Below are positions 4,102 to 61,057 of a DNA stretch of 64,000 nt, in pieces. Source of the stretch: a virus (lineage: Duplodnaviria; Caudoviricetes); the IMG/VR virus record IMGVR_UViG_3300049182_000044, positions 1 to 64,000 of that record; one strand, 5' to 3'. The position numbers were made by a program, and so were the translations under genes. Positions within the stretch are counted from its first letter, which is position 1. Each line of letters begins with the position of its first letter. Under the pieces are notes generated by a model, which saw nothing but the letters and a program-made list of their open reading frames with translations, ran no database searches and was not told the origin of the DNA.

Positions 4102-4929
4102 TCAGTCCTCCACGATTAGCAAGGACATTGCTTCACCACGATTGCCTTGAATGGAGGCCTCGTAAGGCATATCCCATTCGACCATATCGGAACCGATGGT
4201 GACAGTCGGTACCTGACCCTCATTGACGCACAGAGTACCTAAGAAGGCCGGTGCGCCAAAGAAGACACAGGCATCGGGATCGATCACGCGATGCTCTGGC
4301 GTCCTGAAAGCGTCACTCATTACAGGCATGCCATACAGGTGCCCCATGTTACCGCGCATGACGTTTTCGATCTTCGAACTTGGATCGAACATGCTGCGAA
4401 TTTCGGGATTGGCAATAAGGTTGTCACTGTAGAAGCGAGAGCCCATGAGACACGCATACACAGGAATGTCGTTATCAGTTACGATAGAGCGAACCTGAGC
4501 AAGCAGTTGCCCAGTCACTTCATTACGCTTCACACGAACGATCCGACTAGCCTTGTTCTTGAACGCTAGGCTGACAAGACCCCGATCTTCTGACGCGAAC
4601 ATTTGCTCCTGAGCTGAAATGAATTGCTCTTCCATCTGCAGGCGCTTGTTCACACGGTTGCGCTCAAACTTCATCGACACGGTCTTTTCAGACGGCTGCG
4701 CCCCGGTCATGGGAATACGATTGAGAAGACGCCGAGCAAAGCCTTCATGCTCGGCCGTACTCACTAGCTCTTGTTGAGTGCAGATAGCAAACGTAGGGTG
4801 TGCGTAATCGACGATGCTGTAGAACACATCTTTGCTGATCGTGATGTTCTCTTTTTTCGCGAGCTTCTCTTCTTGCTGACGCGCTTGCAAGGTCTTGAAC
4901 ATCGTGTTTATGTCCGGCTGTTGATCCAT
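4102..4929 (-). CDS. Divergent major-capsid-protein-like paralog
   Basis: Segments EGFARRLLNR, ASEDR and GNMGHLYGMPVMSDAFRTPEHRVI match, from memory, conserved blocks of Lu11/PaBG/RSL1-type major capsid proteins. Confidence 0.6.
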   Translation of the reverse strand: MDQQPDINTMFKTLQARQQEEKLAKKENITISKDVFYSIVDYAHPTFAICTQQELVSTAEHEGFARRLLNRIPMTGAQPSEKTVSMKFERNRVNKRLQMEEQFISAQEQMFASEDRGLVSLAFKNKASRIVRVKRNEVTGQLLAQVRSIVTDNDIPVYACLMGSRFYSDNLIANPEIRSMFDPSSKIENVMRGNMGHLYGMPVMSDAFRTPEHRVIDPDACVFFGAPAFLGTLCVNEGQVPTVTIGSDMVEWDMPYEASIQGNRGEAMSLLIVED

Positions 4930-4941
4930 TTCTCTTCCTCC

Positions 4942-5223
4942 TTAACGTTTTATAACTGCTACTACCTTCCCTATCAGTTCAACTCCTGCATCGTGGATCA
5001 GTTGAGAAGGATCTGCACTGTTCGACAGCTGAACTTCTGGTAGCACTACCTCCGACTTGATCTGTTGCCTCGTCGTACTAACAACCACGCCTATGACGAT
5101 ATCGCTAATATCGTACTCTTGCGAAGCACCGAAGAAGTCAGCAGCAGCCTGTCGCAAGTCTCTACGTGAATACGATTGACCCGGATCGAGCGAGTCAATA
5201 AAACTGTTCAACAACGCTTTCAT
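4942..5223 (-). CDS. Hypothetical protein
   Basis: 93-aa ORF, ATGA-coupled to the upstream gene. Confidence 0.65.
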   Translation of the reverse strand: MKALLNSFIDSLDPGQSYSRRDLRQAAADFFGASQEYDISDIVIGVVVSTTRQQIKSEVVLPEVQLSNSADPSQLIHDAGVELIGKVVAVIKR

Positions 5224-11881: not shown

Positions 11882-13405
11882 TTAGAACGGAACATCGTCG
11901 TCATCGTCATCGTCTTTCTTCTTTTTCTTCTTGTCGCCCTTACCGGACTTCTTGTCAGCCTTCTTGTCCGACTTCTTGTCCGACTTCTTGGATTCCTTTT
12001 CCTTGCCCTTTTTCTTCTTGGGCTCGTCATCCTCGTCATCGTCATCGTCATCGTCGTCATCGTCCGAGTCCTCGTCGTCCTCGTCTTCATCCTTCGACTT
12101 CTTGCCTTTGCCTTTGACTTCTACTTTGCCCTTGCCCTTTTTCTTGGGCTCGTCATCGTCATCGTCATCATCGTCGTCCGAGTCATCATCCTCGTCATCA
12201 TCCGAATCGTCCGAATCATCATCGTCTTCATCGTCATCATCAGAGTCGTCGTCATCCTCGTCATCGTCATCCTTCGAGGATTTCTTGCCGGCCTTCTTGT
12301 CCTTGCCTTTGCCTTTGGACTTCGGTTCGTCGTCTTCATCGTCGTCGTCCGAGTCATCATCCTCGTCATCGTCCGAGTCATCATCCTCGTCATCGTCCGA
12401 GTCATCCTTGGACTTCTTGCCTTTGCCCTTGGCCGGCTTAGCATCTTTCTTGCCTTTGCCCTTTGCCTTCGGCTCGTCTTCATCGTCGTCCTCGTCCTCG
12501 TCCGAATCATCGTCATCATCAGAATCATCGTCATCATCGTCGTCCGACGGCTTGCCCTTCTTGCCCTTGCCTTTGGGCTCTTCCTTCTTGCCCTTCTTTT
12601 TCTTCTTGCCGAGATCTTCATCATCATCATCATCATCGTCGTCATCGTCTCCGTCACCAGAGTCGAGGTCTTCCTGACCAACGATATGCATACGCTTCAG
12701 TTCAGCCTTTGCGTCTGCTTCAGTTTCGCGACCCAACTGATCGAGCAGTGCTTCGCTCAGTTCCCAGACCAGGTATGCCTTCTCTTCGTCTGTCAACGCC
12801 GACTTGTCACCGAGGTTGACTTGGTACTGCTCAGGGCCCTTCGCGTCCGGATCGTGCTTGACGTTGATGTCCACGCCGTACTTCTCATGCGAGACAGGGA
12901 ACGTCTTCGTGCCGTCCTTGGTCTTGTGCTTGTTCAGCTCTTTGAGGCCCTGGATCTTCGCCATCAACGAACTGGTGATACGCAGGACACGAACCGGAGT
13001 CCACGAATCGCTACCCATCTCTTTGTGGCCACTTTCCTTCTCACCCTTAGAAGGCTTGCCTTTCTTGGCCGGCGCGTCTTCCTGAGCAGCGCGCGAAATG
13101 ACGTTAGCCAGGTAGAACACTTCACCCTTGCCGCCCGACTCGAGATCGTCGTATGGGCACTTGACGCCCTTCTTCGCGCCTTCGGTTTCCGGATCGAACG
13201 ATACGCAAATCTTCGGGATCTTGATTTCGCGCTTGTCCTTGCCGGCGATGATGTTGATCCAGTGGCGCTTGACTGCGAGCATGTCAAGATCAAGAACGCG
13301 GATGGTAGTCCACTTGTTCTTGGGCAGCTTGATCATCTCGAGCAAGTCTTCCAGGCGTTGCGACTCACGACCAACGCGCGGTTTGGCATCTGCTAATTTA
13401 ACCAT
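11882..13405 (-). CDS. ssb: Single-stranded DNA-binding protein (gp32-like) with a ~260-aa mixed-charge tail ending DDDDDDVPF
   Basis: N-domain IRVL..RHW..C..CP; adjacent to recA; acidic C-terminus resembling the bacterial SSB-Ct DDDIPF. Confidence 0.75.
   Translation of the reverse strand: MVKLADAKPRVGRESQRLEDLLEMIKLPKNKWTTIRVLDLDMLAVKRHWINIIAGKDKREIKIPKICVSFDPETEGAKKGVKCPYDDLESGGKGEVFYLANVISRAAQEDAPAKKGKPSKGEKESGHKEMGSDSWTPVRVLRITSSLMAKIQGLKELNKHKTKDGTKTFPVSHEKYGVDINVKHDPDAKGPEQYQVNLGDKSALTDEEKAYLVWELSEALLDQLGRETEADAKAELKRMHIVGQEDLDSGDGDDDDDDDDDDEDLGKKKKKGKKEEPKGKGKKGKPSDDDDDDDSDDDDDSDEDEDDDEDEPKAKGKGKKDAKPAKGKGKKSKDDSDDDEDDDSDDDEDDDSDDDDEDDEPKSKGKGKDKKAGKKSSKDDDDEDDDDSDDDDEDDDDSDDSDDDEDDDSDDDDDDDDDEPKKKGKGKVEVKGKGKKSKDEDEDDEDSDDDDDDDDDDEDDEPKKKKGKEKESKKSDKKSDKKADKKSGKGDKKKKKKDDDDDDDVPF
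12347..12406. repeat. 24-bp tandem repeat inside ssb (2.5 copies; another copy at 12176-12199)
   Basis: GTCCGAGTCATCATCCTCGTCATC repeated, encoding D/E/S octapeptides. Confidence 0.85.
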
Positions 13406-13464
13406 TTTGTGTTCCTTAGTTGTAGTAACTCTTTGTTAAGGGTGACTGATAACGTCAATAATGC

Positions 13465-13472
13465 ATTTACAG
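13465..13472 (-). promoter_or_regulatory. Candidate phage promoter CTGTAAAT
   Basis: 60 nt upstream of ssb. Confidence 0.6.
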
Positions 13473-13483
13473 TATTGACGCAG

Positions 13484-13588
13484 CTATTGCAAGTAAGCGA
13501 TAATGCCTAGGACGATTCCGATAATGCAGAAGCCCAGGACTATCCATGGGAAGGGGTCAGGAGGTTCGTAATCGTTATGCGATCTCAT
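13484..13588 (-). CDS. 34-aa single-pass membrane peptide, absent from the ORF track
   Basis: MRSHNDYEPPDPFPWIVLGFCIIGIVLGIIAYLQ; fills the gap between neighbours. Confidence 0.55.
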   Translation of the reverse strand: MRSHNDYEPPDPFPWIVLGFCIIGIVLGIIAYLQ

Positions 13589-13757
13589 ACGTCCACTGGC
13601 CAATGCCCATTGCATTCACAAACTTGCGCTGGACTTGACGCAGCCACACCAGGTGGTACGTATGCCCTTGCGGACCTTTCTTGACGGCTACGACCGGATG
13701 CCACGCAAACCACTTGTGTGCATTGACTCGATCAGCTTTGAGTTGGATGCTTGCCAT
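13575..13757 (-). CDS. Hypothetical protein
   Basis: 60-aa ORF with a GAGG RBS; WFAWHPV motif. Confidence 0.6.
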   Translation of the reverse strand: MASIQLKADRVNAHKWFAWHPVVAVKKGPQGHTYHLVWLRQVQRKFVNAMGIGQWTYEIA

Positions 13758-14892
13758 TTTTCTTCAACCTCTTTTTCGGCTTGACTGCCGGAGTTTTTAA
13801 TAACTGCTGCTCCCTCATGGTCTTACGCATAAGACGCAGCTCCTTCTTTGAAAACACTTCGTCAATATCGAGATACAGACGAGCTAAACTACGAATGTCG
13901 GCACACTTAGCAAGATACCGGACAACCTCCATCTCTTGGCGTTGCTCCAGCTTTACCTCTGCACCCACATCACCAACAATGTAATCCTGAAGTGACGTTG
14001 CACCGTCTTCACCACTATCAGAACTAACAAGCTTGTCCAGACTGACACTAAAGTTCACGTCTCCACTTGAGTTCGTACCTTGTGCCATCTGCTTACGCTG
14101 CATTTGCGGAATGGAATAGGCGATACCGTATTCGTGGCCATGATCCGTATTGGAACACGTCTGAGCGTTCAGTACCCAGTAATTGATGTACGATGTAAGA
14201 GCACCTTTCGTGCAATCGTACTTGTCAACGGCCTTGGTAATCGCAGTCAGGAAGTTATGATACACATCCTTGAAGTCGAAGTTTTCACCCTTCATCTTGC
14301 AGAAGGCCTTCGCTTGTTTGTACGCCAGCTTCACATAGTTGCTGACGATAGAATTTCGGAACTCGTAAGCAAGCTCCAGGTAGTCTTGCGCGATGTTGAT
14401 TGTGGAGAACAACCGACTGCGCGAGTTACCTACGTTCTGCTCCAACGCCCTGAGCTTCATATCGAGCATGATACGTTCATGCCCAGTTGCAAGTAAGTAG
14501 CGTTGATAAAGCTCTGCGTAGCCTTCAGTCTCTTTCAAGAACTTGACTACGAAGTTGTAGACGAAACCACGCTCGATCTTTGAGTTGGTCAGGATGTGAA
14601 TCTTCTTGTCCCGATCATCTGTAATCAAACAGTGGCACAGTGAGGTCATGAACTCCTCACGCGGAAGCGCTGAGAGCTTCCGTTTGCGATTTCTCGCTGT
14701 CAGACCGAGTAAGTACACGATCTGAACATCAAACACGTCGCTAGTCTTTACCAGCGGTGCCAGAGATTCGTAGATAAGGAAGTCCAACACTTCCTGAATC
14801 TGTCCCCCTGTTAAATTGCTGGTCAAGTCCGCGTTCGTCGCCTTCGCTAGCTCTTCCGCTAGTGCTGGCTCTTTTGTTTTGCGGGCTTTCAT
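13732..14892 (-). CDS. Phage-encoded sigma70-family RNA polymerase sigma factor
   Basis: YVKLAYKQAK..KDVYHNFLTAITKAVDKYDCTKGALTSYINYWV matches region 2. VSLDKLV..DGATSLQDYI matches region 3. No clear region 4. Confidence 0.75.
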   Translation of the reverse strand: MKARKTKEPALAEELAKATNADLTSNLTGGQIQEVLDFLIYESLAPLVKTSDVFDVQIVYLLGLTARNRKRKLSALPREEFMTSLCHCLITDDRDKKIHILTNSKIERGFVYNFVVKFLKETEGYAELYQRYLLATGHERIMLDMKLRALEQNVGNSRSRLFSTINIAQDYLELAYEFRNSIVSNYVKLAYKQAKAFCKMKGENFDFKDVYHNFLTAITKAVDKYDCTKGALTSYINYWVLNAQTCSNTDHGHEYGIAYSIPQMQRKQMAQGTNSSGDVNFSVSLDKLVSSDSGEDGATSLQDYIVGDVGAEVKLEQRQEMEVVRYLAKCADIRSLARLYLDIDEVFSKKELRLMRKTMREQQLLKTPAVKPKKRLKKNGKHPTQS

Positions 14893-15076
14893 CTGTGGTA
14901 CCTTCGCCGTTTAGGATTCTTTGGGCAGACTCTATACGTCTCTCCCGTGCCTCATTCATCGCTTTCATTCTCTGAGGGCGATCCATTGTGTTCCAACTCT
15001 CAACGTCTTCTTTAGAGCGGAAACACGTAGTGCACGTTTGCGTCTGCACATCCATTTTACAGATACGTGTACACAT
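14741..15076 (-). CDS. DUF1289-like small Cys protein
   Basis: CTRICKMD..CTTCFRSKEDVESWNTM; GGAG RBS before ATG 15076. The 3' end overlaps the sigma gene. Confidence 0.55.
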   Translation of the reverse strand: MCTRICKMDVQTQTCTTCFRSKEDVESWNTMDRPQRMKAMNEARERRIESAQRILNGEGTTDESPQNKRASTSGRASEGDERGLDQQFNRGTDSGSVGLPYLRISGTAGKD

Positions 15077-15087
15077 CTTTCGGCTCC

Positions 15088-15534
15088 TCAACCGTCATAA
15101 TGCGTCATATCGTGCTTGATCTTGTTGGCACAAGTAGGGCACTGAAAGCCGTAAGCACGCTTCACCATCTTCCTGCATCCGAGGCGAAAGCAATACGGTG
15201 TCCAATCCGGATCAGAGCGTTGCTTGTAGTCCTCGAAGATTTCACCATCGACAACACCTACATTACCGTCAGGCGCGTCAATCTCTTTCCATTCGCCCTC
15301 GGTGTACTGGTAGTATTTGCGTTGATCGTTCCTGAACATGAGCTTGCCTTCCTCGATGGGAACAGGACCGACGGCTGCCCATCCATTGGAAGTCAACCGC
15401 TTAAACGAGCCATCACGCATGTCGATATACGTATGCCCAATCCTCGGAGAACGAATCATGTCAAACATATCTTTGAGTGGATCGTTCTCCCACTTGTAGT
15501 CGGGGTTCATCTTAGGACTGGTTGTCATTTGCAC
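15088..15534 (-). CDS. Hypothetical protein with C-terminal Zn ribbon
   Basis: CFRLGC..CPTC. Confidence 0.6.
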   Translation of the reverse strand: MQMTTSPKMNPDYKWENDPLKDMFDMIRSPRIGHTYIDMRDGSFKRLTSNGWAAVGPVPIEEGKLMFRNDQRKYYQYTEGEWKEIDAPDGNVGVVDGEIFEDYKQRSDPDWTPYCFRLGCRKMVKRAYGFQCPTCANKIKHDMTHYDG

Positions 15535-15680
15535 CTCGCTCTACGTTGTTTCTTTTTCTTGTTGAACCGTTTGCACTCAGCTCTTTTCCAGATAGGAAGC
15601 ATGCGCTGAACTTCTTCTAACCAACGCTTGTCCTCATGCTCGCAAATTGCTTGAAAAGCAACTTCTTCAGAATTGGTCAT
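15525..15680 (-). CDS. Small basic hypothetical protein
   Basis: Probable start MTNSEE at 15680 with a GGAG RBS. Confidence 0.5.
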   Translation of the reverse strand: MTNSEEVAFQAICEHEDKRWLEEVQRMLPIWKRAECKRFNKKKKQRRARCK

Positions 15681-15957
15681 CACGCTGCTCCTTTTCTTCA
15701 CGAGCTTTACGTAGAGCATCTTGCCGTGCACCGAAGCCTGCAGGCATAGGACGTACTGGAACCCAGATAGGAACCTTACCGATGTGGCTACGGATATAGC
15801 CTTGCTTCTTCATCAGCTCATTGTATTCAGCTAGGAGTAGCTCTTCTTGTGCTTTTCGGCGGGGACGCCATGACATCACATAGTAAAGACCCGCCCACCC
15901 AATAATGGGTATGGCGGCCTTCACCAGCAGCGACATAGCTTGTGGATCGTCACACAT
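15667..15957 (-). CDS. Membrane-anchored hypothetical protein
   Basis: N-terminal hydrophobic helix followed by WRPRRK. Confidence 0.55.
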   Translation of the reverse strand: MCDDPQAMSLLVKAAIPIIGWAGLYYVMSWRPRRKAQEELLLAEYNELMKKQGYIRSHIGKVPIWVPVRPMPAGFGARQDALRKAREEKEQRDDQF

Positions 15958-16445
15958 TATGCCCCCACTGGTTGCGCTGTCTTACTACGCGAACCCTTGG
16001 AAAGCATATGACGGAACAAGGGCGACAGGCCCTCGAGGTAGGGGTTGAGGTCCATGGGAATAGAACGCCCACGATAGAGATTCAGATTGAAGATCGAGCT
16101 TGGCTGATCTGTCATCTTCACAGTGAGTTCTTGCCATTCACCTGGAGAGTACTCGATGCAAGGCAGTCCAACTACGATAGGGCCATTGTTCGCCCGATCT
16201 GCGAGATCATTGTACCACCTTGCGAGCGCGTACTTGTCATCCTTCGGTTGGGCCGGATCGTTAGCGTGTACGAATGATGTGATCTGTGCTTTGGTGAGCG
16301 GATCAAGATTGATGCAAACGTTCGTATGCTTGTTCTTTGGCTTGAGAGCGTTCTCGATAATGCGGTTGACTTTCAGATCGCGAAAGCCATAAACATCACG
16401 CATCAGTTTAGCGAACACCTTCGGTGGGATAATCAATGTTGCCAT
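15957..16445 (-). CDS. Hypothetical protein
   Basis: 162-aa ORF in the operon. Confidence 0.7.
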   Translation of the reverse strand: MATLIIPPKVFAKLMRDVYGFRDLKVNRIIENALKPKNKHTNVCINLDPLTKAQITSFVHANDPAQPKDDKYALARWYNDLADRANNGPIVVGLPCIEYSPGEWQELTVKMTDQPSSIFNLNLYRGRSIPMDLNPYLEGLSPLFRHMLSKGSRSKTAQPVGA

Positions 16446-16459
16446 TTCTTATTCTTTCT

Positions 16460-16741
16460 TTAGCCCATACGAGCTAAGTCTTTAAGCTTCAGTACTTCGA
16501 CTGTCAGCTTGGGGTTGTCGATCAGACCTTGCAGCGTGTTCTTACCTTTCAGAATTTCCAGCTGATATTCCGTCTGGCCGTAGTCTTGCACGAGCTTGCG
16601 TGGCGACTCTGCACTGTTGAGAATCACCTTCTGATTGTCGAGGATAATGTACGGGAACTGGAACGCATCGATCTTGACCGTGTAGTGGTCAGGATGCGTG
16701 ATCTTCCCACCTGTGATGCGCAAATGAATATCTGTTTTCAT
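16460..16741 (-). CDS. Hypothetical protein
   Basis: Start moved to MKTDIH at 16741 (ATGA coupling). Confidence 0.6.
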   Translation of the reverse strand: MKTDIHLRITGGKITHPDHYTVKIDAFQFPYIILDNQKVILNSAESPRKLVQDYGQTEYQLEILKGKNTLQGLIDNPKLTVEVLKLKDLARMG

Positions 16742-17223
16742 CCCACGTCTTTCAAAGCGTCCAACATCTGGTTGCATACGTCTGCCACTCCCTTCTTGTA
16801 CACCTCGTTTGTGTAATGCCCAGGATCCTCTGCCCAATCGCCGTCACTCTGATCGACATGCCCATGCCCATCGAACTCCTTGGGAAGGTCGTCACGCAAC
16901 TGGTCGAGCGACTCTTTGACCAACTTGATGATCTCGTCTCTGTGCTCGCACATGCCTTTCAGCTTGCGGATGAGTTCCATCATCTGATCTTGAGTAGCAA
17001 GTATCTTAGCCGCGAAAGCTGGATCCATGAGGCCAGGCCTATCCGCAACCCGTACCCAAACGCCGTCACGCATGATGTACGTTTCATCAGGAGCTCGATC
17101 TACCTTGTACCGCTCCAGCAGGAACATATGGCCTTCGCGGAACTTCTCCGGATCGGCTTGGGGAAGCACCGGGCCTTTGAAGTTCTCGAAGTCACTGAGT
17201 TTGAATGCAGGTAACGTGTTCAT
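16738..17223 (-). CDS. Hypothetical protein
   Basis: 161-aa ORF abutting neighbours. Confidence 0.65.
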   Translation of the reverse strand: MNTLPAFKLSDFENFKGPVLPQADPEKFREGHMFLLERYKVDRAPDETYIMRDGVWVRVADRPGLMDPAFAAKILATQDQMMELIRKLKGMCEHRDEIIKLVKESLDQLRDDLPKEFDGHGHVDQSDGDWAEDPGHYTNEVYKKGVADVCNQMLDALKDVG

Positions 17224-17544
17224 TTAATCACCAGGCTTTCTGCCTTGCGGCCAGAAGTGCTTTTCAGCACAGCGAGGACAAAACACGAGTCTGCAATCCA
17301 AGCAGCGTATTTCATCCCGTGTTTCAAATATTGGGTATTTGCAGGTGGCACACCAGCGCATGTGAATATCCCTATACGCTTTCAATACCGCTTCAGTGAA
17401 CTTCCACTGTTCGGTTGGAATATTCGTGGGAACTTCTTGTCCGGTTTTCTTGTACGCCACACCCATGACATAGCGCTGATCTCGCCAGTCACCAGTCGGA
17501 CTATACTCACCATCACCCTGAGGGGTTGTGCCTTTGACTAACAT
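17224..17544 (-). CDS. Zn-finger protein
   Basis: CATC..CLDC..CPRCAEKH. Confidence 0.6.
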   Translation of the reverse strand: MLVKGTTPQGDGEYSPTGDWRDQRYVMGVAYKKTGQEVPTNIPTEQWKFTEAVLKAYRDIHMRWCATCKYPIFETRDEIRCLDCRLVFCPRCAEKHFWPQGRKPGD

Positions 17545-17987
17545 CAGTCGCCTCGGTCTTTAATCAACTTCAACACCGGCACCAGGTGACGGCACACGAG
17601 AGGCACATTACCTGGATTGCGCACGACCGCTGGTTCACCATTGGAGTGCTTGATTCTCGCTGCACCCCAAGTGCTCAAAGCGTATTCGCAGTAGAACAGG
17701 AAGAACTCACAGTCACAACTGACAATCACACGCTTCTGCCCAGCTACCTTGTTCTTTTCAGGATCAAGGCCAATGACATGGCACTTGTGCGGCTTGTGGC
17801 GTTGTGGAAACACCGTTTGGCAAATCGCTTGCAACGCTGTGTGCCCACCCTTCGTCTTCGCCTTACCGTACTTCTTGACCACAACTTGATCGCGTGCTTG
17901 CTCTTTGATGTATCGAGGTGTATTCTTCAACAGCCCAACTATGCTGAGTCCTTTCTCGATACGCGCTTTGTCAACGGGAGTTGCCAC
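17544..17987 (-). CDS. SWIM-type zinc-finger protein
   Basis: VSCDCEFF..VCRH = CxC(x)nCxH. Confidence 0.65.
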   Translation of the reverse strand: MATPVDKARIEKGLSIVGLLKNTPRYIKEQARDQVVVKKYGKAKTKGGHTALQAICQTVFPQRHKPHKCHVIGLDPEKNKVAGQKRVIVSCDCEFFLFYCEYALSTWGAARIKHSNGEPAVVRNPGNVPLVCRHLVPVLKLIKDRGD

Positions 17988-17999
17988 GATATTTCTCCA

Positions 18000-19397
18000 T
18001 TAGATATTCGGGTCTGAAATGCGAACAATATCGTCTTCACCGAGGTATGAACCATTCTGAACTTCGAGCACTACGAGGTCTTCACTACCCTCGTTAGCTA
18101 GGCTATGTACAAACCCAGCTGGAATGTCAGCGTACTGCCCAACATTCAATTCGATGCGCTGCAAGCTATCCTGCTTGAACGTGCTGCCAATCGTAACTAC
18201 CGCCTTACCTTTCAAAACCGTCCAGCGTTCATCACGCGACGTATGGTACTGCAGCGAAATAGCTTTGCCTGGCTTGATCGTGAGGCGTTTGACCTTAACG
18301 AATGGAAGCTCTTCAAGAATCTTGTAGGAGCCCCAAGGACGATCAACAACTTTGAGTTCAGTCAGTACATCAGGTGCCGACTTGTCGTTCTTCAAATTAT
18401 CAACCAAATCACGAACTTGATGCGTTTGACCCCTTGCTGAAATGAGAAGTGCGTCTTCAGTGTCAATAACGATCAGGTCGTGAACACCAATCAGTCCGAC
18501 TACTTTGTTCTTCGGTGCGCACACTGAGTTCATTGTGCAGCTAACTTCAACTACATGCTCCGCAGGAGTTAACTTATCAATCATCTGATCGAACACGCCA
18601 AGGTCGTTCCATTTGAAACGAGCTTCGAGTACCGTCAAGTCATCCAGATGCTCGAATACATCGTACTCGATTGAGGACATCTTAACGGCTGGGCCGTCCA
18701 TCATGTAGGTGCATTCTTCCGAATTGCCTGAAATCAGGTATCGCTCACTCGCACTGATCGGAATGTACTTGTGTACGTCTGCCATGAAGCGCTGTGCTGG
18801 GAAAGCTGTGATGCCGCTATTCCACAAAGCACCGCTTTGAATTAGTGTACGAGCTGTTGCCTCCAACGGCTTTTCGAGGAATGAATCCACGATGTGAACA
18901 CGCCCGTCATAGTCACAATCACGCTTGTATGTGATGTAACCGAACTGCGTCGAAACCGTCCAAGGCTTGATGCCCATGAGAGCGATCTCGTTACGCTGAT
19001 CCGCCAGACTGCAAATCATCTCTGCATCAAGCACCCACTGGTCAATAGGATCAATGTCGTGATCTGAAGCCATCAACAAGATGGTCGCGCTTGGATTGAG
19101 TTGAGATGCAGCAAGCGCAATATGCGTGGTCCCATTGTTGAACGGACCTACCATCCAGTTGACCCGCTTGCACTGACTACCCAGTTCAACTGCTTCACGG
19201 CGAGCCTGTTGGTACAGCTCTTGAGTGATCGCTACTACGATGAACGAACACTCCAACGCTGATGCGCGAATCAATGCCTTTTGAAACAGCGTCTGCCCGT
19301 CGCTCAAACGAATGAACTGCTTGGGATTTTGTACGCGCGAATACGGCCACAGTCTTTCTCCTTTGCCTGCGGCCATGATTACTGGAACGATATGCAT
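18000..19397 (-). CDS. manC: Mannose-1-phosphate guanylyltransferase / mannose-6-phosphate isomerase
   Basis: VIMAAGKGERLWPYSR..PKQF, ASDH, FLEKP, WNSG, SIEY, WNDLG; C-terminal cupin RPWG..ISLQYH..E.W..EVQNG.YLGEDDIVR. Confidence 0.95.
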   Translation of the reverse strand: MHIVPVIMAAGKGERLWPYSRVQNPKQFIRLSDGQTLFQKALIRASALECSFIVVAITQELYQQARREAVELGSQCKRVNWMVGPFNNGTTHIALAASQLNPSATILLMASDHDIDPIDQWVLDAEMICSLADQRNEIALMGIKPWTVSTQFGYITYKRDCDYDGRVHIVDSFLEKPLEATARTLIQSGALWNSGITAFPAQRFMADVHKYIPISASERYLISGNSEECTYMMDGPAVKMSSIEYDVFEHLDDLTVLEARFKWNDLGVFDQMIDKLTPAEHVVEVSCTMNSVCAPKNKVVGLIGVHDLIVIDTEDALLISARGQTHQVRDLVDNLKNDKSAPDVLTELKVVDRPWGSYKILEELPFVKVKRLTIKPGKAISLQYHTSRDERWTVLKGKAVVTIGSTFKQDSLQRIELNVGQYADIPAGFVHSLANEGSEDLVVLEVQNGSYLGEDDIVRISDPNI

Positions 19398-19411
19398 ATT
19401 GCGCTTTCTGT

Positions 19412-20518
19412 TTAGATTAAGTGTGAGTAGAGCGCCTCACCGTTAAAGAACTTATCAAGGTGCGGCTGATAGAGTTCCATCTTGTGACGCATGATTTCCT
19501 TTGTCTTTACAGCATGAACAATCCAGTCACACAGCTTCTGTTTGTTCCGACGATAGGAGTTCTCGTCGCTGGTCCACACGCTTGGGTACAGGAAGTCCTT
19601 GTGGTACATTTCACGATAGGACAACCGATTCGGCATCAACGGGATTGCACCGTGCAGCGTGCCCTCGTACATACTGATACCCAGGTTTTCATGCAACGAA
19701 CAGCTGAACACGAACTCCGAACGCTGCATCAGTTCATGATACGCACGCTTGTCGAGGCCGAGTTCCTGAGTACACACGAAGCGATAGTCGATCTTGGTCT
19801 CGAGTGTATCACGCAAGTCTTTGAACAACCACGGCTGCTTATCAGAATTGAGCCGATGCGGGAACAGGATGACGTTCTCTTTCTTCTTCGGATACTTGCT
19901 ATTGTACAGCTTGAGATCCTTAAGGTACTCCATCGGCCAGCCAACAACATACGAGCGCGTGTTCTTGCTACGCGGTTCCGGCTGAATGCCGAGAATCTTC
20001 TCGAACAGGCTGAGGTGATAAGCTGATGCGAAATAGTTCTTGTCGTAGGCGTAGTACATCGCCCGTTCAGCGCCATAGCTCCAACGCTTGTCCTTGATCG
20101 TGAAACCAAGGATATCTGTTTCGTCATACGAGCCTGCGTGCCACAAGCCATGCAGTTCTACGTTCAGCTCCATCAGGTCGATCATGTAGCGAATCTGGAG
20201 AACTACTGGATTCCAAGCATCAGTGATAACGATCTTGTCACCGTTCTTGATCGCACCGTCCTGAAACATCTTCGCGAGCTTTGCAAGCTGGGTCGACTTG
20301 TAGATATTGGTCGCCGCCCAATCGAGGAACTGACCAGGCGGTACCTTGTTTGTCACCTTTGCACCAGTAACTTGCTTGACTTGACCGAGATTACGGATGC
20401 ATGTCTTGCGATCAACGTTTTGCGCATGTTCGAGCAGTTGGCGCGGAACGAAACGGAACCACTCTGCACTGTACCGGGATTCGACCGGCTCAATCGGGAG
20501 GATGAATACGTTATGCAC
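19412..20518 (-). CDS. GT-B fold glycosyltransferase (GT4-like)
   Basis: ILFPHRLNSDKQP and SLHENLGISMYEG (Ex7E), PNRLSYREMY. Start moved to GTG 20518 with an AAGGAG RBS. Confidence 0.8.
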   Translation of the reverse strand: MHNVFILPIEPVESRYSAEWFRFVPRQLLEHAQNVDRKTCIRNLGQVKQVTGAKVTNKVPPGQFLDWAATNIYKSTQLAKLAKMFQDGAIKNGDKIVITDAWNPVVLQIRYMIDLMELNVELHGLWHAGSYDETDILGFTIKDKRWSYGAERAMYYAYDKNYFASAYHLSLFEKILGIQPEPRSKNTRSYVVGWPMEYLKDLKLYNSKYPKKKENVILFPHRLNSDKQPWLFKDLRDTLETKIDYRFVCTQELGLDKRAYHELMQRSEFVFSCSLHENLGISMYEGTLHGAIPLMPNRLSYREMYHKDFLYPSVWTSDENSYRRNKQKLCDWIVHAVKTKEIMRHKMELYQPHLDKFFNGEALYSHLI

Positions 20519-21014
20519 TTGCTTCTCCTTTGCCTTGCAGGAATACCGTATCGAAGCCTTTGACGCCTTCAAACTTCAACGTCGCACCGCACTCGCCGTC
20601 CTCATTGACTTCAATTTCAATGTCACGCATGTACCCATACTTGTCGAAGATCTTCTGCATGAGCTGTGCGGCAATCATTTCGCAGCTCTTGAAATCCAGA
20701 GGCAACTGCTTGTCTTCGTACAAGCCCATCAACCAGTTCTGGAACATATGGAACTCGATCTCACGATCATCGTGGAATACCTCAATCGTCACCCGGAACT
20801 TGAAGAGGTGACGATGTGGCGAAGCGAGATACTGCACTTCATCGGGAGCACCTGGATAACGATGAAGGCCATGCTTCTGGAACGTGACGAAGATCGTTGT
20901 CTTGATCTTCTGGATGTTGTTTGAGATCACGCGCTCAGCCATTGCTTTGGCCATTGCCTGGCGCTGCTCCAGCTCAGCTGGCGACGCCTGAGGAATATGT
21001 ACACCGTTCGTCAT
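20511..21014 (-). CDS. dpdL: QueD-like T-fold protein, probable DpdL-type (CDG decarboxylase)
   Basis: YLASPHRHLF = LxxxHRHxF; H..HRH metal site, SCE and EDG motifs; lacks the canonical QueD C-x3-HGH. Start 21014 with an AAGGAG RBS. Confidence 0.6.
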   Translation of the reverse strand: MTNGVHIPQASPAELEQRQAMAKAMAERVISNNIQKIKTTIFVTFQKHGLHRYPGAPDEVQYLASPHRHLFKFRVTIEVFHDDREIEFHMFQNWLMGLYEDKQLPLDFKSCEMIAAQLMQKIFDKYGYMRDIEIEVNEDGECGATLKFEGVKGFDTVFLQGKGEASA

Positions 21015-21015
21015 G

Positions 21016-21963
21016 TTACTCTCCTTGCTGTTGGCCGACGCTGGGAATCTCAGGAGCATCGACAGGTTTCTCTGCGCGAGGAATCGACTTCTCGCCCAGC
21101 TGGGAAGGTTGGCGGCCTTTAACAGTGCCGTCCAACATCAGGTCGTCGCGGAACACGTCTGTGTGCCAGATCTTGCCGTCAACGTGAGCCATCGTGCGAT
21201 CAGTATGGTACGAATTAGAACCGAAGATCCACTCCACACCGCCGATTGCATTGCACCAGAACTCGTCGTAGCCACGTTTGCCTTTCGGCCATTCGTTCAA
21301 CACCTGAAACATATCAGAATTGACTCGCAGCATGTCCGCCATGTACGCGCCGGTCGACTGCTTCGGCATCTTGAACGTAATCAACTGATCCGGAATCTCC
21401 TTCATCAGGTGATTTGGCAGGCAGCGAATGCCATTGACCTTCACGAACTCGAACATGTCTTCGAGTCCGAGCTTCGTGTCGTCCCAGTCTTCGTAGTCGC
21501 GATAATTGATAATGTCGAACTGACCGTACACGTACAGATGCGTATCAGGCTTGTCAGCCTTCGATGCCAGCTCGAACAGCTTGAGCGTCTTGTACGGGAT
21601 CATGTAATCGTCATCAACGTTCAAGTACCAGCAACGATCATTCTCAGACATGGTCCGGAAGGCACCGAAACGATTCTGCCATTCGTCGAACGTTTGCGCG
21701 ATCATCTTCGCTTTGCTGAACTCTGCTGGGTAGTTGATCCAGAGGAGCGCGTTCGTGGTCTGCTTTGCAAGGGCGAACAACAAGGCTTTACGAGTACGTT
21801 CAGCTTCATCCATGAACGACTCTTCCTTGTTGTACGCGATTGTGACTACAGCATTCTCCACATTCATCAAGATGTTAAATGTGGCAGCGTAAAGATCATG
21901 CACACGTTCGTTACCGACGCTGCACAACATTACGTGAATACGGCTGAAATCAGGATTGGTCAT
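21016..21963 (-). CDS. GT-A fold glycosyltransferase-like protein
   Basis: N-terminal VMLCS strand, YLNVDDDY (DxD), GYDE; embedded in the manC-dpdA operon. Confidence 0.55.
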   Translation of the reverse strand: MTNPDFSRIHVMLCSVGNERVHDLYAATFNILMNVENAVVTIAYNKEESFMDEAERTRKALLFALAKQTTNALLWINYPAEFSKAKMIAQTFDEWQNRFGAFRTMSENDRCWYLNVDDDYMIPYKTLKLFELASKADKPDTHLYVYGQFDIINYRDYEDWDDTKLGLEDMFEFVKVNGIRCLPNHLMKEIPDQLITFKMPKQSTGAYMADMLRVNSDMFQVLNEWPKGKRGYDEFWCNAIGGVEWIFGSNSYHTDRTMAHVDGKIWHTDVFRDDLMLDGTVKGRQPSQLGEKSIPRAEKPVDAPEIPSVGQQQGE

Positions 21964-21979
21964 TTGGATCTTTCAGTGA

Positions 21980-22225
21980 TTAACGACGGTTACGTTTCTT
22001 GCTGGCCTTAGCCATCTTCTTGCGCTGCTTGTCCTTGCCCGGGTCGCGCCACTTCTTGTTGTTGCCCACGCGCACCCACATTTCGTCGGGGCCGAGAACA
22101 TCATCGGGACCAACTGCTTGTGCTTCCGGTTCGGCTTCATTACGATCAGGCCCTTCAGTGCTTGTGCCGCCATGAGCTTCTTTGAAGTCCATTTCGTTCA
22201 TGTCGTTCAGTGTGCGATGTTCCAT
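21980..22225 (-). CDS. Hypothetical protein with basic C-terminus
   Basis: 81-aa ORF between dpdA and the GT-A gene. Confidence 0.55.
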   Translation of the reverse strand: MEHRTLNDMNEMDFKEAHGGTSTEGPDRNEAEPEAQAVGPDDVLGPDEMWVRVGNNKKWRDPGKDKQRKKMAKASKKRNRR

Positions 22226-22227
22226 GA

Positions 22228-23886
22228 TTACTTCTTTCCTTTCTTCAGTTTGACCTTCTTTTTACCTTTGACCTTCACAGCCTTCGTCGAATCAATCGAG
22301 ACCTCTTCGTCTTTGATGACCTTCTTGGCTTTCTTTCCGGCCTTCTTATCCTTTACAGCAGCCTTCTTGTCTTGAGCTTCGACCTTCTTCGGCTTCTTTG
22401 GTTTGCCGTCGCCGCCGTTGTTCAGGTCTTGCACGACGCTCTCCATCGCTGATATACGAGCCAGCACACGCTTCTTCTTTTCGTCGAATGTCTGCAATTC
22501 ATTGCCTGCGTTGTCATCACCCGTAGTGGTCTCACCCGTAACAGGGAACAGCGAGTTGGTCAGCGTGATCGGCTTCTCAGAAGTGATCTCCAGGATATTG
22601 CGGTAACGCTTACGCGCCACTTCAATGCCCTTCTCAGTCGCAACGTCGATGAAGTCCATCGCTTGTTTGACAGACTGCAGCTTCGGATGGCTCTTCAACT
22701 GTGTGTACACCAGCTCGTTGTATTCCTTGCTGGTCAACGAATCGGCTGCCTCTTGCAACTGCTTCGAGTAACGCGTCATTTCGATTGCGTTGTGGATCGA
22801 CAGTAGTTCCAGCGTGAAACGATTAGCACCAAAAGCCAGAATGTCAGTGTACTTCAATGCCTTGCAAACCTCGCACTGACATGGCAGCAGCTTCTGAGTA
22901 TTCGGGATTGATCCACGTGAGCCGATCGGGATACGCTTCGATGTGTGATACAGGTCGAACTGGAAGTGGTATGCCTTGTTCGACGCCGACTGAATGTGCG
23001 ACGTAGAGTCAGACGTGATGTGTGGCTTCCAAGTGGAATTGGCGAGCTTCACCAGAACCGGAATGTGCAGCGAACCGAAAACACCCAGCATGTGATATTG
23101 CTTGTATTTCTGTCCGGTGTTCACCAAGTCCCAGATGATGTCCACACCGCCTAACAAACCTTGGCGGTACAAACCACCGACCGCGCAACGAGGCAGACGC
23201 TTGTCTTCAACGATCTTACGATACGCACGACGTTGATTGATATTGTGACCGTGAAAGATGTTCAGCAGCTCCACACCCTTCGCACGCTCGAGCATGATCT
23301 CGGTCGAAGCCTTCTGAAGCTTCGCCGCACGATCAATGATCTCGTCATTAGCGACCGAAAGCGGAAGATCGAGTACCATGCCGGCGTCTGCATTCTGATT
23401 GTAGAACTCAACCAGATCTGCAGGGCTAATGGCTCCGATCATGTCACGCGCCATCTGAAGTCCACCGGAGTCGGACAAAACATTGATACGTTGATCATCG
23501 GGAATGCGGGAAGGAGTACGGGGATTGACCGTGCCCTTCGAGTGCGCGAAGTTCGTCATGATGTATTCGATACCTAGACGCTTGCACACTGAATCGTTGA
23601 ACAGGTTGAAGTCGTAGAACTCGTCAAAGGATTCGCCGTATGGATAGAATGCATCCATCATATCGTTATTGCGAACGATCACGATCTCACGATCAGGACA
23701 AACGAACCAGATATGCGTACTCGTTTGTTCCTTGATCGTGATCTTGTGCGGGTCACCACCTTTGTACTTGATGTAGACTGCGAGACCGCCGAAGCTGCGA
23801 AACAGCGCTGCAGCTGCGACGAATGAGTACCCATGATCCGGGCACGGAGGAGAAGTGTATTTTGTTTTGGTAGATTTGTCGGACAT
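22228..23886 (-). CDS. dpdA: tRNA-guanine-transglycosylase-fold base-exchange enzyme, probable DNA-acting DpdA, with Lys-rich tail
   Basis: SDSGGLQ, MVLD, VGGL, HMLG, SDSTS and Zn site CQCEVC..HN. DNA versus tRNA substrate is inferred from context. Confidence 0.75.
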   Translation of the reverse strand: MSDKSTKTKYTSPPCPDHGYSFVAAAALFRSFGGLAVYIKYKGGDPHKITIKEQTSTHIWFVCPDREIVIVRNNDMMDAFYPYGESFDEFYDFNLFNDSVCKRLGIEYIMTNFAHSKGTVNPRTPSRIPDDQRINVLSDSGGLQMARDMIGAISPADLVEFYNQNADAGMVLDLPLSVANDEIIDRAAKLQKASTEIMLERAKGVELLNIFHGHNINQRRAYRKIVEDKRLPRCAVGGLYRQGLLGGVDIIWDLVNTGQKYKQYHMLGVFGSLHIPVLVKLANSTWKPHITSDSTSHIQSASNKAYHFQFDLYHTSKRIPIGSRGSIPNTQKLLPCQCEVCKALKYTDILAFGANRFTLELLSIHNAIEMTRYSKQLQEAADSLTSKEYNELVYTQLKSHPKLQSVKQAMDFIDVATEKGIEVARKRYRNILEITSEKPITLTNSLFPVTGETTTGDDNAGNELQTFDEKKKRVLARISAMESVVQDLNNGGDGKPKKPKKVEAQDKKAAVKDKKAGKKAKKVIKDEEVSIDSTKAVKVKGKKKVKLKKGKK

Positions 23887-23937
23887 GAATTAACCCCTTT
23901 ACTTCACGGATGGATATGCGGTGTAATTATGTCCAAC

Positions 23938-23945
23938 ATTTACAG
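23938..23945 (-). promoter_or_regulatory. Candidate phage promoter CTGTAAAT
   Basis: 52 nt upstream of dpdA, at the head of the modification operon. Confidence 0.6.
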
Positions 23946-23947
23946 TT

Positions 23948-24889
23948 TTACTGTTTGGGTAGTCTCATGCCAGGCGGCCTATCAAACCAAGTCAACTTGA
24001 GAAACTCCTTTAATTGCCGTGGATTGAAGCATAGATGGCCCTTTGAAAGAGGGCATGGTGTGTACGAGTCGTAGTGCTCCTTGTAGAACTCGTAGGAATC
24101 ACAGGGCTTCTGCGCCACAATGTCCATGAGCCCTTTGAACGTCGTAACCGCCAGCACTTCATCCCATTGACGATCCCACTTCTTGATCTTCTTGAGATAC
24201 CGAGCCTTCTCCTTCTTTGAGATAGGCTTACCTGTTGCGTACACTACGTCCATAGGACTGTCACGCGAAACATACATCAAGATCCATCCACTGATCTTAA
24301 TGTCGAACATCAACTCGATCAATGCGCAGTACGCCCTGATCTGTGCCACGTTGTGATGGTACGGGAGCATCCCGTGAGACTTCTGAGATTGAATGATTCG
24401 TGCGGAGCTCGTCTTATAGTCGATGACGTAGTACTCTCCGTTCTTGGAGCGCCATATGCCATCCAAATGGCCAGACACATTCTTGAATGCCTTGACGGTA
24501 AGTTCTTCATAGTTCATTCGCCCTTTGCAGATCGGGCACTTGTTCTTTCTCGATATGGCGCGGAAGCCCTTGCAGCCCGGCGTCCGGCATTTCCACTGAC
24601 CGTAAATCTGACCGGCCCGACCCATCCAATCCTGCATAAGCTCGTGAGCTACCGTCCCGACCTCCACGTAATAGCGACCGCTCATGTCAATGTCTTTCTT
24701 AACGTGGGCGGTCATCTGCTTGTAAGCATGCTTCAGCGGGCAGTATGGGAATCCAGATACACGTAACCGTTCTTCGTGAGTCCGCTCGTCTTCTACTTGA
24801 GTGGCTACGGCATCTAGATAGTATTGTTTGAATTCTTTTAGCACTCCCGCCATGTTCACGGTGGCGAATGCAGGTAAATGTCGTGCCAT
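23948..24889 (-). CDS. Cas4/RecB-like PD-(D/E)xK exonuclease
   Basis: YCPLK, GTVAH, GHLDG, IDYKT, QIRAY and a C-terminal Cys cluster; extra CxxxxC..CPIC insert. Confidence 0.8.
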   Translation of the reverse strand: MARHLPAFATVNMAGVLKEFKQYYLDAVATQVEDERTHEERLRVSGFPYCPLKHAYKQMTAHVKKDIDMSGRYYVEVGTVAHELMQDWMGRAGQIYGQWKCRTPGCKGFRAISRKNKCPICKGRMNYEELTVKAFKNVSGHLDGIWRSKNGEYYVIDYKTSSARIIQSQKSHGMLPYHHNVAQIRAYCALIELMFDIKISGWILMYVSRDSPMDVVYATGKPISKKEKARYLKKIKKWDRQWDEVLAVTTFKGLMDIVAQKPCDSYEFYKEHYDSYTPCPLSKGHLCFNPRQLKEFLKLTWFDRPPGMRLPKQ

Positions 24890-24906
24890 TTTTTTAGGCC
24901 TCAGAA

Positions 24907-24914
24907 CTGTAAAT
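24907..24914 (+). promoter_or_regulatory. Candidate phage promoter CTGTAAAT
   Basis: 45 nt upstream of ORF 24959; a divergent TGTAAAA at 24936-24942 points into the Cas4-like gene. Confidence 0.6.
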
Positions 24915-24958
24915 AACGCATATACATTAACATCTTTTTACACATTCTGGAGGGTCAA

Positions 24959-25360
24959 ATGGCTCAAGGAATTGATGGATTTACCGCAGGAGTTTTGATC
25001 GGTGCGGTGAAGACGAAACCGGACCTCGATCAGGTTTGCGAGTTGGTGAAGAGCCTATCAAACAGCTCGGATCGGCCGAGCGACGAGGACATTCAGAAGA
25101 TCTTCGCAGAGGCTCAACGCCGTTTCAAGCCGAGGGACTTGGTAAAGATCGATCATACAGATTACGTCGGAACCATTGCCGGGTACAACACATCCACAGG
25201 CGGCTTTTACCCAGGCTGGAGATTTCCAGTTTATGTAAAGATTGATGGAAGCTGTTTTGAGGACAAGGAATCACGAACATTCGAGTACGTGCTCGATCAG
25301 GTGTTACCGCTTAGCGTAGGACCTGTTTATCAACCTTTCTCATTAGGAGAACAAGCATGA
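24959..25360 (+). CDS. Hypothetical protein
   Basis: GGAGG RBS; first gene of a divergent unit. Confidence 0.7.
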   Translation: MAQGIDGFTAGVLIGAVKTKPDLDQVCELVKSLSNSSDRPSDEDIQKIFAEAQRRFKPRDLVKIDHTDYVGTIAGYNTSTGGFYPGWRFPVYVKIDGSCFEDKESRTFEYVLDQVLPLSVGPVYQPFSLGEQA

Positions 25361-56302: not shown

Positions 56303-56336
56303 ACGATATGCGTGATTTAATGCGTTGAGAGAACCT

Positions 56337-59698: not shown

Positions 59699-61057
59699 AT
59701 GAGACAACTACATACTGAAAAAGATGGTATCACTTACATCGACGACATACCGTTCAATGAAGTGAAATGGTACTACATGGCTCCAGTTCCGGATCGCGCT
59801 GCGTTGCAAGAGCCGCCAGAAGGCACTGAGTTCGCCATGTGCAACGATATGTCGAAACGCACGACCCATCCTGGAAGCTTCTTCGTCTGGATTTATCAGA
59901 ACGGGAAGTGGTCTGATATTTCGATTGAAATCGTCCGCAACATCCCCGATTTCATGTCGTACAACGCTGGCGAATGCCCGTGTGGGATCAAACGGCATAC
60001 CGGCATGATCGCTGGGCCTGCGGTACACAACACCGGCCCTCGCGGTACGTTCGGAGGACTGATTCACATCGACGATGCATGGGCATGCGGTCAGGATCAG
60101 ATGTGTAAAGAGAACGTAGATAACACCCGAACAAAGGAACCACAAATGACAATGCCGAGTGATGAAGAACTCGAATTGAACGAGCCGGAAAAGCGTCTGC
60201 GCATCTCCGAAGCATTTTACTCCATCGAAGGTGAAGGCCCGCTTACTGGTGTGCCTACCGTTTTCATCCGCACGTTCGGATGTAACTTCACCTGCTCCGG
60301 TTTCAGCAATCCGACTGGTCAGAAGGTCATTCCGATCAAGATCGACACTTTGCAGAAATTCAAATCGACGGTCGGTTGCGATTCCATCTATTCGTGGCAT
60401 CCGGATTACAAAGACCTCTCTCAGTGGCATACGATCTCGCAACTGGCATCGCACGTAGTTGAAGGATTGCTGCCCGGCGGCAAGGTATTGAATCCCCGCA
60501 CAGGTCAATCGCCCATCCTTTCGTTGACGGGCGGTGAACCGACAATGCACCAGGACGCGATCATTCAGTTGATTAACCATCCGATGATGCAGGACTTCGA
60601 CAAGCTGCTGATCGAAACCAATGCGGCATTCCCGTTGAAGGACGAGTTCATCGAAGGCCTCAATGTGTGGAAAGAGAAGGGTCGTGAGCGTCTTATTATC
60701 TGGGCCTGTTCGCCTAAGCTGAGCATTAGTGGTGAACCGCGTCACAAGGCGATTCGCCCGGAGATCATCGCCGCTCAAATGCAGGTGCGCGATAGTCTCC
60801 ACTATCTCAAGTTCGTTAGTGACGGGTCTACGGAGTCGTTTGAGGAAATCGTTGACACTGTAAAAGAGTACAATGATTACTTGTCGAACTTCATGATGGA
60901 ACTCGATCCGCATTCGATCTACGTCATGCCGATGGGTGCCACCCACGAACAACAAATGGAGATACAGCGCAAGGTCGCAGACAAGTGCCTCGAATACGGG
61001 TACAGCTTCTGCATTCGCGCTCACTGCTTCGTCTATAACAATGAGGTAGGGACATAA
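59699..61057 (+). CDS. queE: 7-carboxy-7-deazaguanine synthase (radical SAM) with a 149-aa N-terminal extension or internal start at 60146
   Basis: ISEAFYSIEGEG..GVPTVFIRTFGCNFTC..GCDS, LTGGEP, IETN, CSPK, LKFV, YVMP. Confidence 0.88.
   Translation: MRQLHTEKDGITYIDDIPFNEVKWYYMAPVPDRAALQEPPEGTEFAMCNDMSKRTTHPGSFFVWIYQNGKWSDISIEIVRNIPDFMSYNAGECPCGIKRHTGMIAGPAVHNTGPRGTFGGLIHIDDAWACGQDQMCKENVDNTRTKEPQMTMPSDEELELNEPEKRLRISEAFYSIEGEGPLTGVPTVFIRTFGCNFTCSGFSNPTGQKVIPIKIDTLQKFKSTVGCDSIYSWHPDYKDLSQWHTISQLASHVVEGLLPGGKVLNPRTGQSPILSLTGGEPTMHQDAIIQLINHPMMQDFDKLLIETNAAFPLKDEFIEGLNVWKEKGRERLIIWACSPKLSISGEPRHKAIRPEIIAAQMQVRDSLHYLKFVSDGSTESFEEIVDTVKEYNDYLSNFMMELDPHSIYVMPMGATHEQQMEIQRKVADKCLEYGYSFCIRAHCFVYNNEVGT

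Follow-up and report, generated by a model that had tools for sequence, protein, structure and literature searches.

We describe a gene cluster on the minus strand of a 64,000-nt stretch of phage DNA (the window), which is the first 64 kb of the 281,566-bp IMG/VR record IMGVR_UViG_3300049182_000044, an uncultured jumbo phage whose genome has a CheckV completeness of 100%. Between positions 18000 and 23886 the cluster encodes a DpdA-like base-exchange enzyme assigned to the tRNA-guanine transglycosylase (TGT) superfamily, a small open reading frame (ORF), a putative glycosyltransferase (GT) of GT-A fold, the QueD paralogue DpdL, a GT4-type GT of GT-B fold, and ManC, a mannose-1-phosphate guanylyltransferase fused to a type II phosphomannose isomerase (PMI) cupin. 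We give an even chance to the reading in which this cluster serves as the tailoring cassette in a phage pathway of DNA modification with 7-deazaguanine, giving a glycosylated 7-deazaguanine in virion DNA. The link between the GTs and the 7-deazaguanine pathway, on which this reading depends, is well supported by gene order and co-occurrence.

The strongest argument for the GTs belonging to the deazaguanine pathway is an exchange of genes at one locus. The backbone order primase, PD-(D/E)XK nuclease, then DpdA and p147, and further on a sigma gene, is common to Phage NCTB, Pseudomonas phage vB_PpuM-Voja-6 and Vibrio phage vB_VcorM_GR7B, and these phages resemble the one studied here in this order, in FolE and in a DpdA of 30-34% identity. 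They differ in that all three carry QueC, located elsewhere in their genomes, and have none of DpdL, GT-B and GT-A. In our genome and in four related metagenomic contigs (L014, L015, L097 and a fourth), the insertion of GT-A, DpdL and GT-B falls exactly at the junction of DpdA and p147. Homologues of p147 come after DpdA in NCTB and after the cassette in L014, L015 and L009. In the contig whose DpdA is closest to ours (69% identity and the same Lys-rich length), the same slot is filled by two QueC-like genes. Cassette and QueC thus alternate in a single slot, and the cassette appears to be an alternative to QueC at the branch point of 7-carboxy-7-deazaguanine (CDG). Two Logan assemblies with neighbouring accession numbers, SRR23086401 and SRR23086375, were also seen to differ here: one has DpdA with two QueC-like genes and the other has DpdA with GT-A, DpdL and GT-B. 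As these related phages differ at the slot, both variants exist in nature.

The second line of evidence is the pairing of GT-B with DpdL. We surveyed 80 IMG/VR loci with a GT-B homologue and found DpdL in 77 of them with a median gap of 262 nt, a DpdA type in 73, FolE in 60 and QueE in 53; these loci are the top-scoring ones and are dominated by related marine phages, hence they are not independent samples. The same pair is present in five cultured lineages. In ACP17, DpdA, GT-B, DpdL and QueE are contiguous, in X1 the order is GT-B, TGT, DpdL and QueE, and PA5oct, Phosso and BCSR5 likewise carry both genes. For QueC, these five phages gave no match above the family cut-off. Over the 9 genomes compared here, QueC and the cassette exclude each other. 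When compared with the cassette here, PA5oct, ACP17, Phosso, BCSR5 and X1/BUDD have a GT-B of 25-43% identity, a DpdL of 44-57% identity and a FolE/QueE/DpdA cluster, but neither GT-A nor ManC, and most have other DpdA types. Three DpdA sequence types were distinguished, namely P0001 (the enzyme here) with NCTB and BCSR5, ACP17 with X1, and PA5oct with locus L006, and the five lineages use all three. The preliminary description of this DNA had attached the GTs to the 7-deazaguanine pathway; the replacement of QueC by the cassette and the company that GT-B keeps with DpdL both uphold this.

The rest of the pathway is encoded elsewhere in the genome (Table 1). FolE passes the equivalog models, and the genome's own QueD keeps the Cys/HG form and is distinct from DpdL. 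QueE, which had been placed elsewhere in the window, was found there as a divergent gene: the search with PF04055 failed to detect it, tblastn with phage QueE recovered it, and the NCBIfam QueE models and Fer4_12 match it weakly. Its tblastn E-values against phage-annotated QueE are 2e-24 for PA5oct, 2e-46 for X1 and 8e-46 for L006. QueC was not found in the 281,566-bp genome with a hidden Markov model, nor with tblastn using the QueC of relatives (best E 0.13). With FolE, QueD and QueE present and QueC absent, the phage is expected to make CDG and not preQ0.

All six ORFs of the cluster lie in the places and in the order first proposed, and with the likely start codons the gaps between them are 2, 16, 1, -8 and 14 nt, with 12 nt more to p147. 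ManC is the only cassette protein that Pfam names. Pfam and PHROGs name none of the other four as an enzyme family, and these were assigned from profiles or predicted folds. Every motif quoted in the preliminary description was found, with key residues invariant in the family alignments, and all of its gene and fold assignments hold. With megablast, the region had no match among cultured phage genomes.

The DpdA-like protein P0001 contains SDSGGLQ (aa 138-144), MVLD (aa 170-173), CQCEVC (aa 336-341) and H365. Across 34 homologues, D139, D173, C336, C338, C341 and H365 show little or no variation. P0001 itself has no match to PF01702, the Pfam TGT family, which four of 67 homologues carry, but NCBIfam TgtA matches it over the zinc region (E 3.7e-7). 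Since a phmmer search of P0001 against the Protein Data Bank (PDB) gave zero matches, a family profile was needed; the profile of the 34 homologues finds the Pyrococcus archaeal TGT (ArcTGT) 1iq8 with E 4.9e-7, and the two regions aligned are exactly the catalytic block (DSG..Q/LD.P) and the zinc block (CxCxxC). From these matches we place P0001 in the TGT superfamily. Its orthologues occur in Phage NCTB, the PpuM phages of Pseudomonas putida, Xanthomonas/Erwinia jumbo phages, Vibrio GR7B and Burkholderia BCSR5. It is not a DpdA3 of the type of Cellulophaga phage phiST, as BLASTP against phiST DpdA3 (CGPG_00065) gave no match at E<=1. Base exchange in DNA, as opposed to tRNA, is suggested by context: the replication genes nearby, the pathway genes in the genome and the C-terminal tail, which is of a type typical of non-specific DNA binding. 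This tail (22228-22440) has about 70 residues, is rich in Lys, Ala and Val and resembles histone H1; it was also observed in the two closest homologues (556-560 aa) and is absent in most members, which have about 470-520 aa. The genes around the cassette belong to the replication/early region of the genome.

The protein described at first as QueD-like is indeed a T-fold relative of QueD, but more exactly it is DpdL, judged by its motif and by its similarity to known DpdL proteins (55% identity to ACP17 and 31% to phiST). Its LASPHRHLF fits the LxxxHRHxF signature that defines DpdL and replaces the CxxxHGH of QueD (Cui, Hutinet et al., NAR 2023, PMC10516641). In that paper, too, decarboxylation of CDG by DpdL is a proposal with the activity unproven. 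In L015 (GCA_043726795.1, JAYSKB010000315.1), DpdL was observed as the N-terminal part of a 283-aa protein (13110-13961) with an uncharacterised C-terminal extension, and its gene does not lie between the two GTs but follows that of a sugar dehydratase/epimerase.

The GT-B protein was predicted with high confidence by AlphaFold2 (AF2), and a Foldseek search of the PDB with this model returned BshA, MshA, glycogen synthase and PglA with probability 1.0. The E-x7-E motif reads ENLGISMYE, and its two glutamates, E277 and E285, do not vary in the family alignment. The score against Pfam Glycos_transf_1 is 13.2 bits, below the cut-off of 26.4; weak matches to it occur in 37 of 45 family members, the best with E 3.9e-6. 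In the fold search of Swiss-Prot, the tRNA-queuosine alpha-mannosyltransferase (QTMAN) of Drosophila comes first. The top 15 include six QTMAN orthologues, and PimC-type enzymes, which depend on GDP-mannose, take places three and five.

The GT-A protein contains NVDDDY, with D117-D119 invariant in its family. The top matches of its predicted fold in both PDB and Swiss-Prot are all GT-A enzymes at modest TM-scores of 0.37-0.48, and nucleotidyltransferases of similar fold rank lower in the list. It has 12 family members among 5.8 billion proteins, and tblastn against phages gave zero matches. The predicted fold and this distribution suggest a new, small and previously unseen GT-A family. In every context examined, GT-B and DpdL are alongside. 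A second phage lineage, represented by the Logan contigs L098 and L099, was seen to have the order DpdL, GT-A, GT-B, with genes for a carbamoyltransferase and a dCMP deaminase close by. The queries used detected no DpdA there within 8 kb; a nearby protein of 518-539 aa, not assigned to a family, is a candidate.

ManC had been called complete, and the domains PF00483 (NTP_transferase), PF22640 (ManC_GMP_beta-helix) and PF01050 (MannoseP_isomer) all score above cut-off and together span its full length. It matches Thermotoga GMP in the PDB (2x5s, E 2.7e-29), and the motifs AGKGER (GxGxR-like) and FLEKP are visible. PMI activity is uncertain, as the metal motif of the cupin is partly altered. In another IMG/VR locus (L034, IMGVR_UViG_3300047552_001046), a stand-alone cupin of 106 aa (4894-5211) was found between an ACP17-type DpdA and GT-B, and among known domains it most resembles the PMI part of ManC (TIGR01479, E 3.8e-21). 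The adjacent ManC, the QTMAN- and PimC-like fold of GT-B and this locus with a PMI-type cupin together make the case for mannose.

In the mechanism we propose, FolE, QueD and QueE would produce CDG, and DpdL and the two GTs would take the place of QueC, the route to preQ0. The ArcTGT-like DpdA would then swap guanine in phage DNA for the deazaguanine base. GT-B would attach a sugar, with GT-A acting after or perhaps before it, and ManC would provide GDP-mannose, the likely donor for at least one of the steps. The resulting glycosylated 7-deazaguanine in virion DNA would block host nucleases. Two different GT folds may point to two transfers without proving a disaccharide. That the phage DNA carries a sugar-bearing deazapurine is, in our estimate, slightly short of an even chance. 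The same tentative standing, a little under even, is given to the reading in full: a mannosylated 7-deazaguanine here, possibly with two sugars, and a simpler sugar in PA5oct, ACP17 and thousands of marine phages.

Several findings weigh against this reading, in addition to the dependence among the surveyed loci. The first is chemical. The base in dDG has no C7 substituent and that in dCDG has only a carboxylate, so that there is no obvious hydroxyl acceptor of the kind on which known glycosyltransferases of DNA and RNA act, and an unusual linkage (an ester, an N2- or a C-glycoside) or a further intermediate would be needed. No hydroxylase or oxygenase was found in the genome with 2OG-FeII_Oxy_5 and 2OG-FeII_Oxy_3. 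N2-glycosides do occur in pyrrolopyrimidine natural products such as huimycin and dapiramicin. The second concerns GT-B: its resemblance to QTMAN is structural only, at 13-17% identity, the E-values differ from those of other GT4 enzymes by no more than a factor of 100, and no QTMAN-specific Pfam domain is among the family matches. We therefore take the likeness as a lead and not as membership. The third concerns the sugar. End to end, ManC scores 288.7 bits with TIGR01479, below the equivalog cut-off of 372.95, and sugar-nucleotide genes are not conserved in the nearest relatives that bear the cassette. L014 and L097 have none, and the one in L015 is an unrelated short-chain dehydrogenase/reductase (SDR), a generic NDP-sugar dehydratase/epimerase and not Gmd, as is also the case in marine loci. 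A GDP-mannose-derived sugar as a conserved trait was therefore not supported, and the donor may be host-derived and may vary between phages. The co-occurrence of manC, GT, dpdL and dpdA that had been proposed as a check is accordingly seen for GT-B with DpdL and a DpdA type, and not for the sugar-nucleotide genes.

Comparison with known systems sets further bounds. Phage phiST (PMC10516641) resembles the phage here in having FolE, QueD and QueE but no QueC, the DpdL motif and an adjoining TGT-superfamily enzyme; it differs in lacking GT-B, GT-A and ManC, and its DpdA3 has 259 aa, whereas the enzyme here has 552 aa, a zinc motif and an ArcTGT-like sequence. It is the sole DpdL phage with a known product, and this product is plain dDG (PMC10516641). 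Thus DpdL needs no GT, which is a further point against glycosylation. QTMAN (GTDC1 in animals) is a GT4 enzyme of GT-B fold whose donor is GDP-mannose and which mannosylates a 7-deazaguanine nucleoside in tRNA, queuosine. Its acceptor is the cyclopentenediol hydroxyl of queuosine, which the phage cannot make, and its substrate is tRNA instead of DNA. In the T4-type glucosyl-hydroxymethylcytosine systems, phage GT-B and GT-A enzymes also decorate DNA bases after replication against restriction, but the acceptor is a hydroxymethyl pyrimidine (5-hydroxymethylcytosine, hmC, or 5-hydroxymethyluracil, hmU), while here no hydroxymethylase is present and the GTs are tied to a purine pathway. To our knowledge, the glycosylated DNA bases known are pyrimidines only, and the known phage 7-deazaguanines carry small substituents. 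In agreement with the preliminary description, which knew of no characterised mannosylated 7-deazaguanine in DNA, our literature search for 7-deazaguanine with a sugar attached in phage DNA, including mannosylated and hexosylated forms, yielded no report.

The tight pairing of GT-B and DpdL can also be explained in another way, which we consider unlikely. GT-B, and here also GT-A, could work with DpdL on a free base or a nucleotide-level intermediate, with the sugar in a biosynthetic, carrier or transient role. In that case the base that ends up in DNA would have no sugar (dDG or a different small derivative), unless DpdA inserted a base that was already glycosylated. The GT-B and DpdL genes are nearly always adjacent or overlapping (by 8 nt here) while the DpdA type varies, and such adjacency fits successive enzymes acting on one small substrate. 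DpdL is also modelled as acting on the free base, and ACP17 DpdL and DpdA, expressed in E. coli without GT-B, formed no dDG (PMC10516641). A requirement for GT-B may explain the failure of this published reconstitution. On the other hand, phiST forms dDG although it has no GT-B, a decarboxylation would not require glycosyl transfer, a dedicated sugar-nucleotide gene and a second GT would be costly for a transient step, and QTMAN, the closest reviewed structural analogue, acts on a polymer.

Returning to glycosylation of the DNA base, we also considered whether the sugar genes merely share the dpd operon, the GTs and ManC serving the phage's structural proteins, the envelope of the host or exopolysaccharide, or a different DNA base such as a 5-hydroxymethyl-pyrimidine. 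We regard this as improbable, a shade more so than transfer to a free base. The GT4 and GT2-like folds are generic, the accessory sugar genes differ between relatives, and a full-length ManC is rare in phages and is classically a gene of exopolysaccharide or lipopolysaccharide synthesis. However, an unrelated role would hardly place GT-B inside dpd clusters in nearly all surveyed loci and in five unrelated cultured lineages, confine the 12-member GT-A family to the neighbourhood of GT-B and DpdL, or let the cassette replace QueC in one slot. The pyrimidine variant, glycosylation of hmC or hmU, was rejected, as the thymidylate synthase (TS) family is represented by a single gene, which scores as a true ThyA (TIGR03284, 261.7 bits; cut-off 108.35), and no 2-oxoglutarate (2OG) oxygenase was found. 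The ThyA models match this 368-aa protein in three separate stretches, so that it appears to carry insertions.

A role in translation, in which the TGT-like enzyme modifies phage or host tRNA, is very improbable: archaeal tRNA transglycosylases are the only detectable relatives with solved structures or curated models and the closest GT-B analogue acts on tRNA, but DpdA has the Lys-rich tail instead of the C-terminal tRNA-binding domains of ArcTGT, its neighbours are primase, nuclease and replication genes, the usual setting of phage DpdA, the DNA of PA5oct, which has the same DpdL and GT-B set, resists enzymes with G-containing restriction sites, pointing to a modified G of unidentified structure (PMC12191111), and the phage 7-deazaguanine systems characterised so far all act on DNA (PMC10516641).

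What is new here is the exchange of QueC for the cassette at one locus, the GT-A family, and, next to the GTs, a gene for GDP-mannose synthesis that points to a candidate donor. If glycosylation of the deazaguanine in DNA is correct, it would be a new class of DNA hypermodification and, for any DNA, the first case of a purine that bears a sugar; the cassette responsible would be one that can trade places with QueC where the pathway branches at CDG. Such a base would bear on the evasion of restriction and CRISPR, on modification-dependent nucleases, on the sequencing of environmental phages and on enzymatic DNA labelling. GT-B has more than 7000 homologues, many of them on marine phage contigs, which suggests that the product of GT-B and DpdL is abundant in nature. 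The core prediction is directly testable in the cultured phages PA5oct, ACP17, BCSR5, X1 and Phosso.

Table 1. Features of the cluster, its surroundings and the pathway genes; positions refer to the window unless marked as genome.
Feature	Position	Strand	Open frame	Remarks
p147, backbone gene	17544..17987	-		phrog_18980; downstream edge of cassette insertion
ManC (mannose-1-phosphate guanylyltransferase, type II PMI cupin)	18000..19397	-	18000-19397	465 aa
GT-B (GT4-type glycosyltransferase)	19412..20518	-	19412-20572	called gene P0006; likely start GTG 20518; 368 aa; AF2 pLDDT 92.4
DpdL (T-fold, QueD paralogue; proposed CDG decarboxylase)	20511..21014	-	20511-21059	likely start ATG 21014; phrog_17812, E 4e-32
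GT-A-fold putative glycosyltransferase	21016..21963	-	21016-21963	315 aa; AF2 pLDDT 81.5
Small ORF	21980..22225	-	21980-22225	81 aa; N-terminus acidic, C-terminus basic
DpdA-like TGT-superfamily enzyme (P0001)	22228..23886	-	22228-23886	552 aa; Lys-rich C-terminal tail, about aa 480-552
CTGTAAAT (extended A-CTGTAAAT), promoter-like element	23938..23945	-		52 nt upstream of DpdA start
PD-(D/E)XK (Cas4-like) nuclease	23948..24889	-		PF12705, phrog_1706; upstream backbone neighbour
A-CTGTAAAT sites	9617, 13465, 23938, 24907, 56295; genome 96751; others
Sigma-like protein	13732-14892
DNA polymerase I	56325-59420
DUF4326 gene	59383-59694
QueE, divergent (CDG synthase)	59699..61057	+		452 aa; N-terminal extension of about 165 aa
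FolE	genome ~96.8-97.5 kb			passes equivalog models
QueD	genome ~105.0-105.7 kb			Cys/HG form
Thymidylate synthase	genome 274637-275743	-		368 aa; outside window

The promoter-like element had been noted upstream of the operon, and a copy of CTGTAAAT indeed sits before the first gene (Table 1). There are 6 copies in the window compared with 1.26 expected, and none of 100 shuffles reaches 6. The extended form A-CTGTAAAT has 17 copies genome-wide, most of them on the coding strand and 23-64 nt upstream of gene starts, and it resembles a class of promoters specific to this phage. Copies precede the DpdA operon, FolE and the gene run from DNA polymerase I to QueE, and this shared element suggests that the three are co-regulated. 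Scans of 13300-25000 for terminators and sigma-70 promoters gave results at or below chance. A sigma-like protein is encoded by the phage within the window (Table 1).

Some minor features remain. In the run just mentioned, QueE follows the DNA polymerase I and DUF4326 genes, and its N-terminal extension has no family match. The small ORF between DpdA and GT-A gave zero family matches in Pfam, PHROGs and NCBIfam; in L014, L015 and L097, GT-A comes directly after DpdA without an ORF between them. The small ORF is thus not conserved in relatives and is possibly no gene. The PD-(D/E)XK nuclease is syntenic in NCTB, L014, L015, L097 and Voja-6. For p147, an atlas search matched only uncharacterised viral clusters, a minority of them with a SWIM finger. 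In L009 (Logan SRR19603261, 2001-3905), the p147 homologue downstream of GT-B is split by an intein with a LAGLIDADG endonuclease domain.

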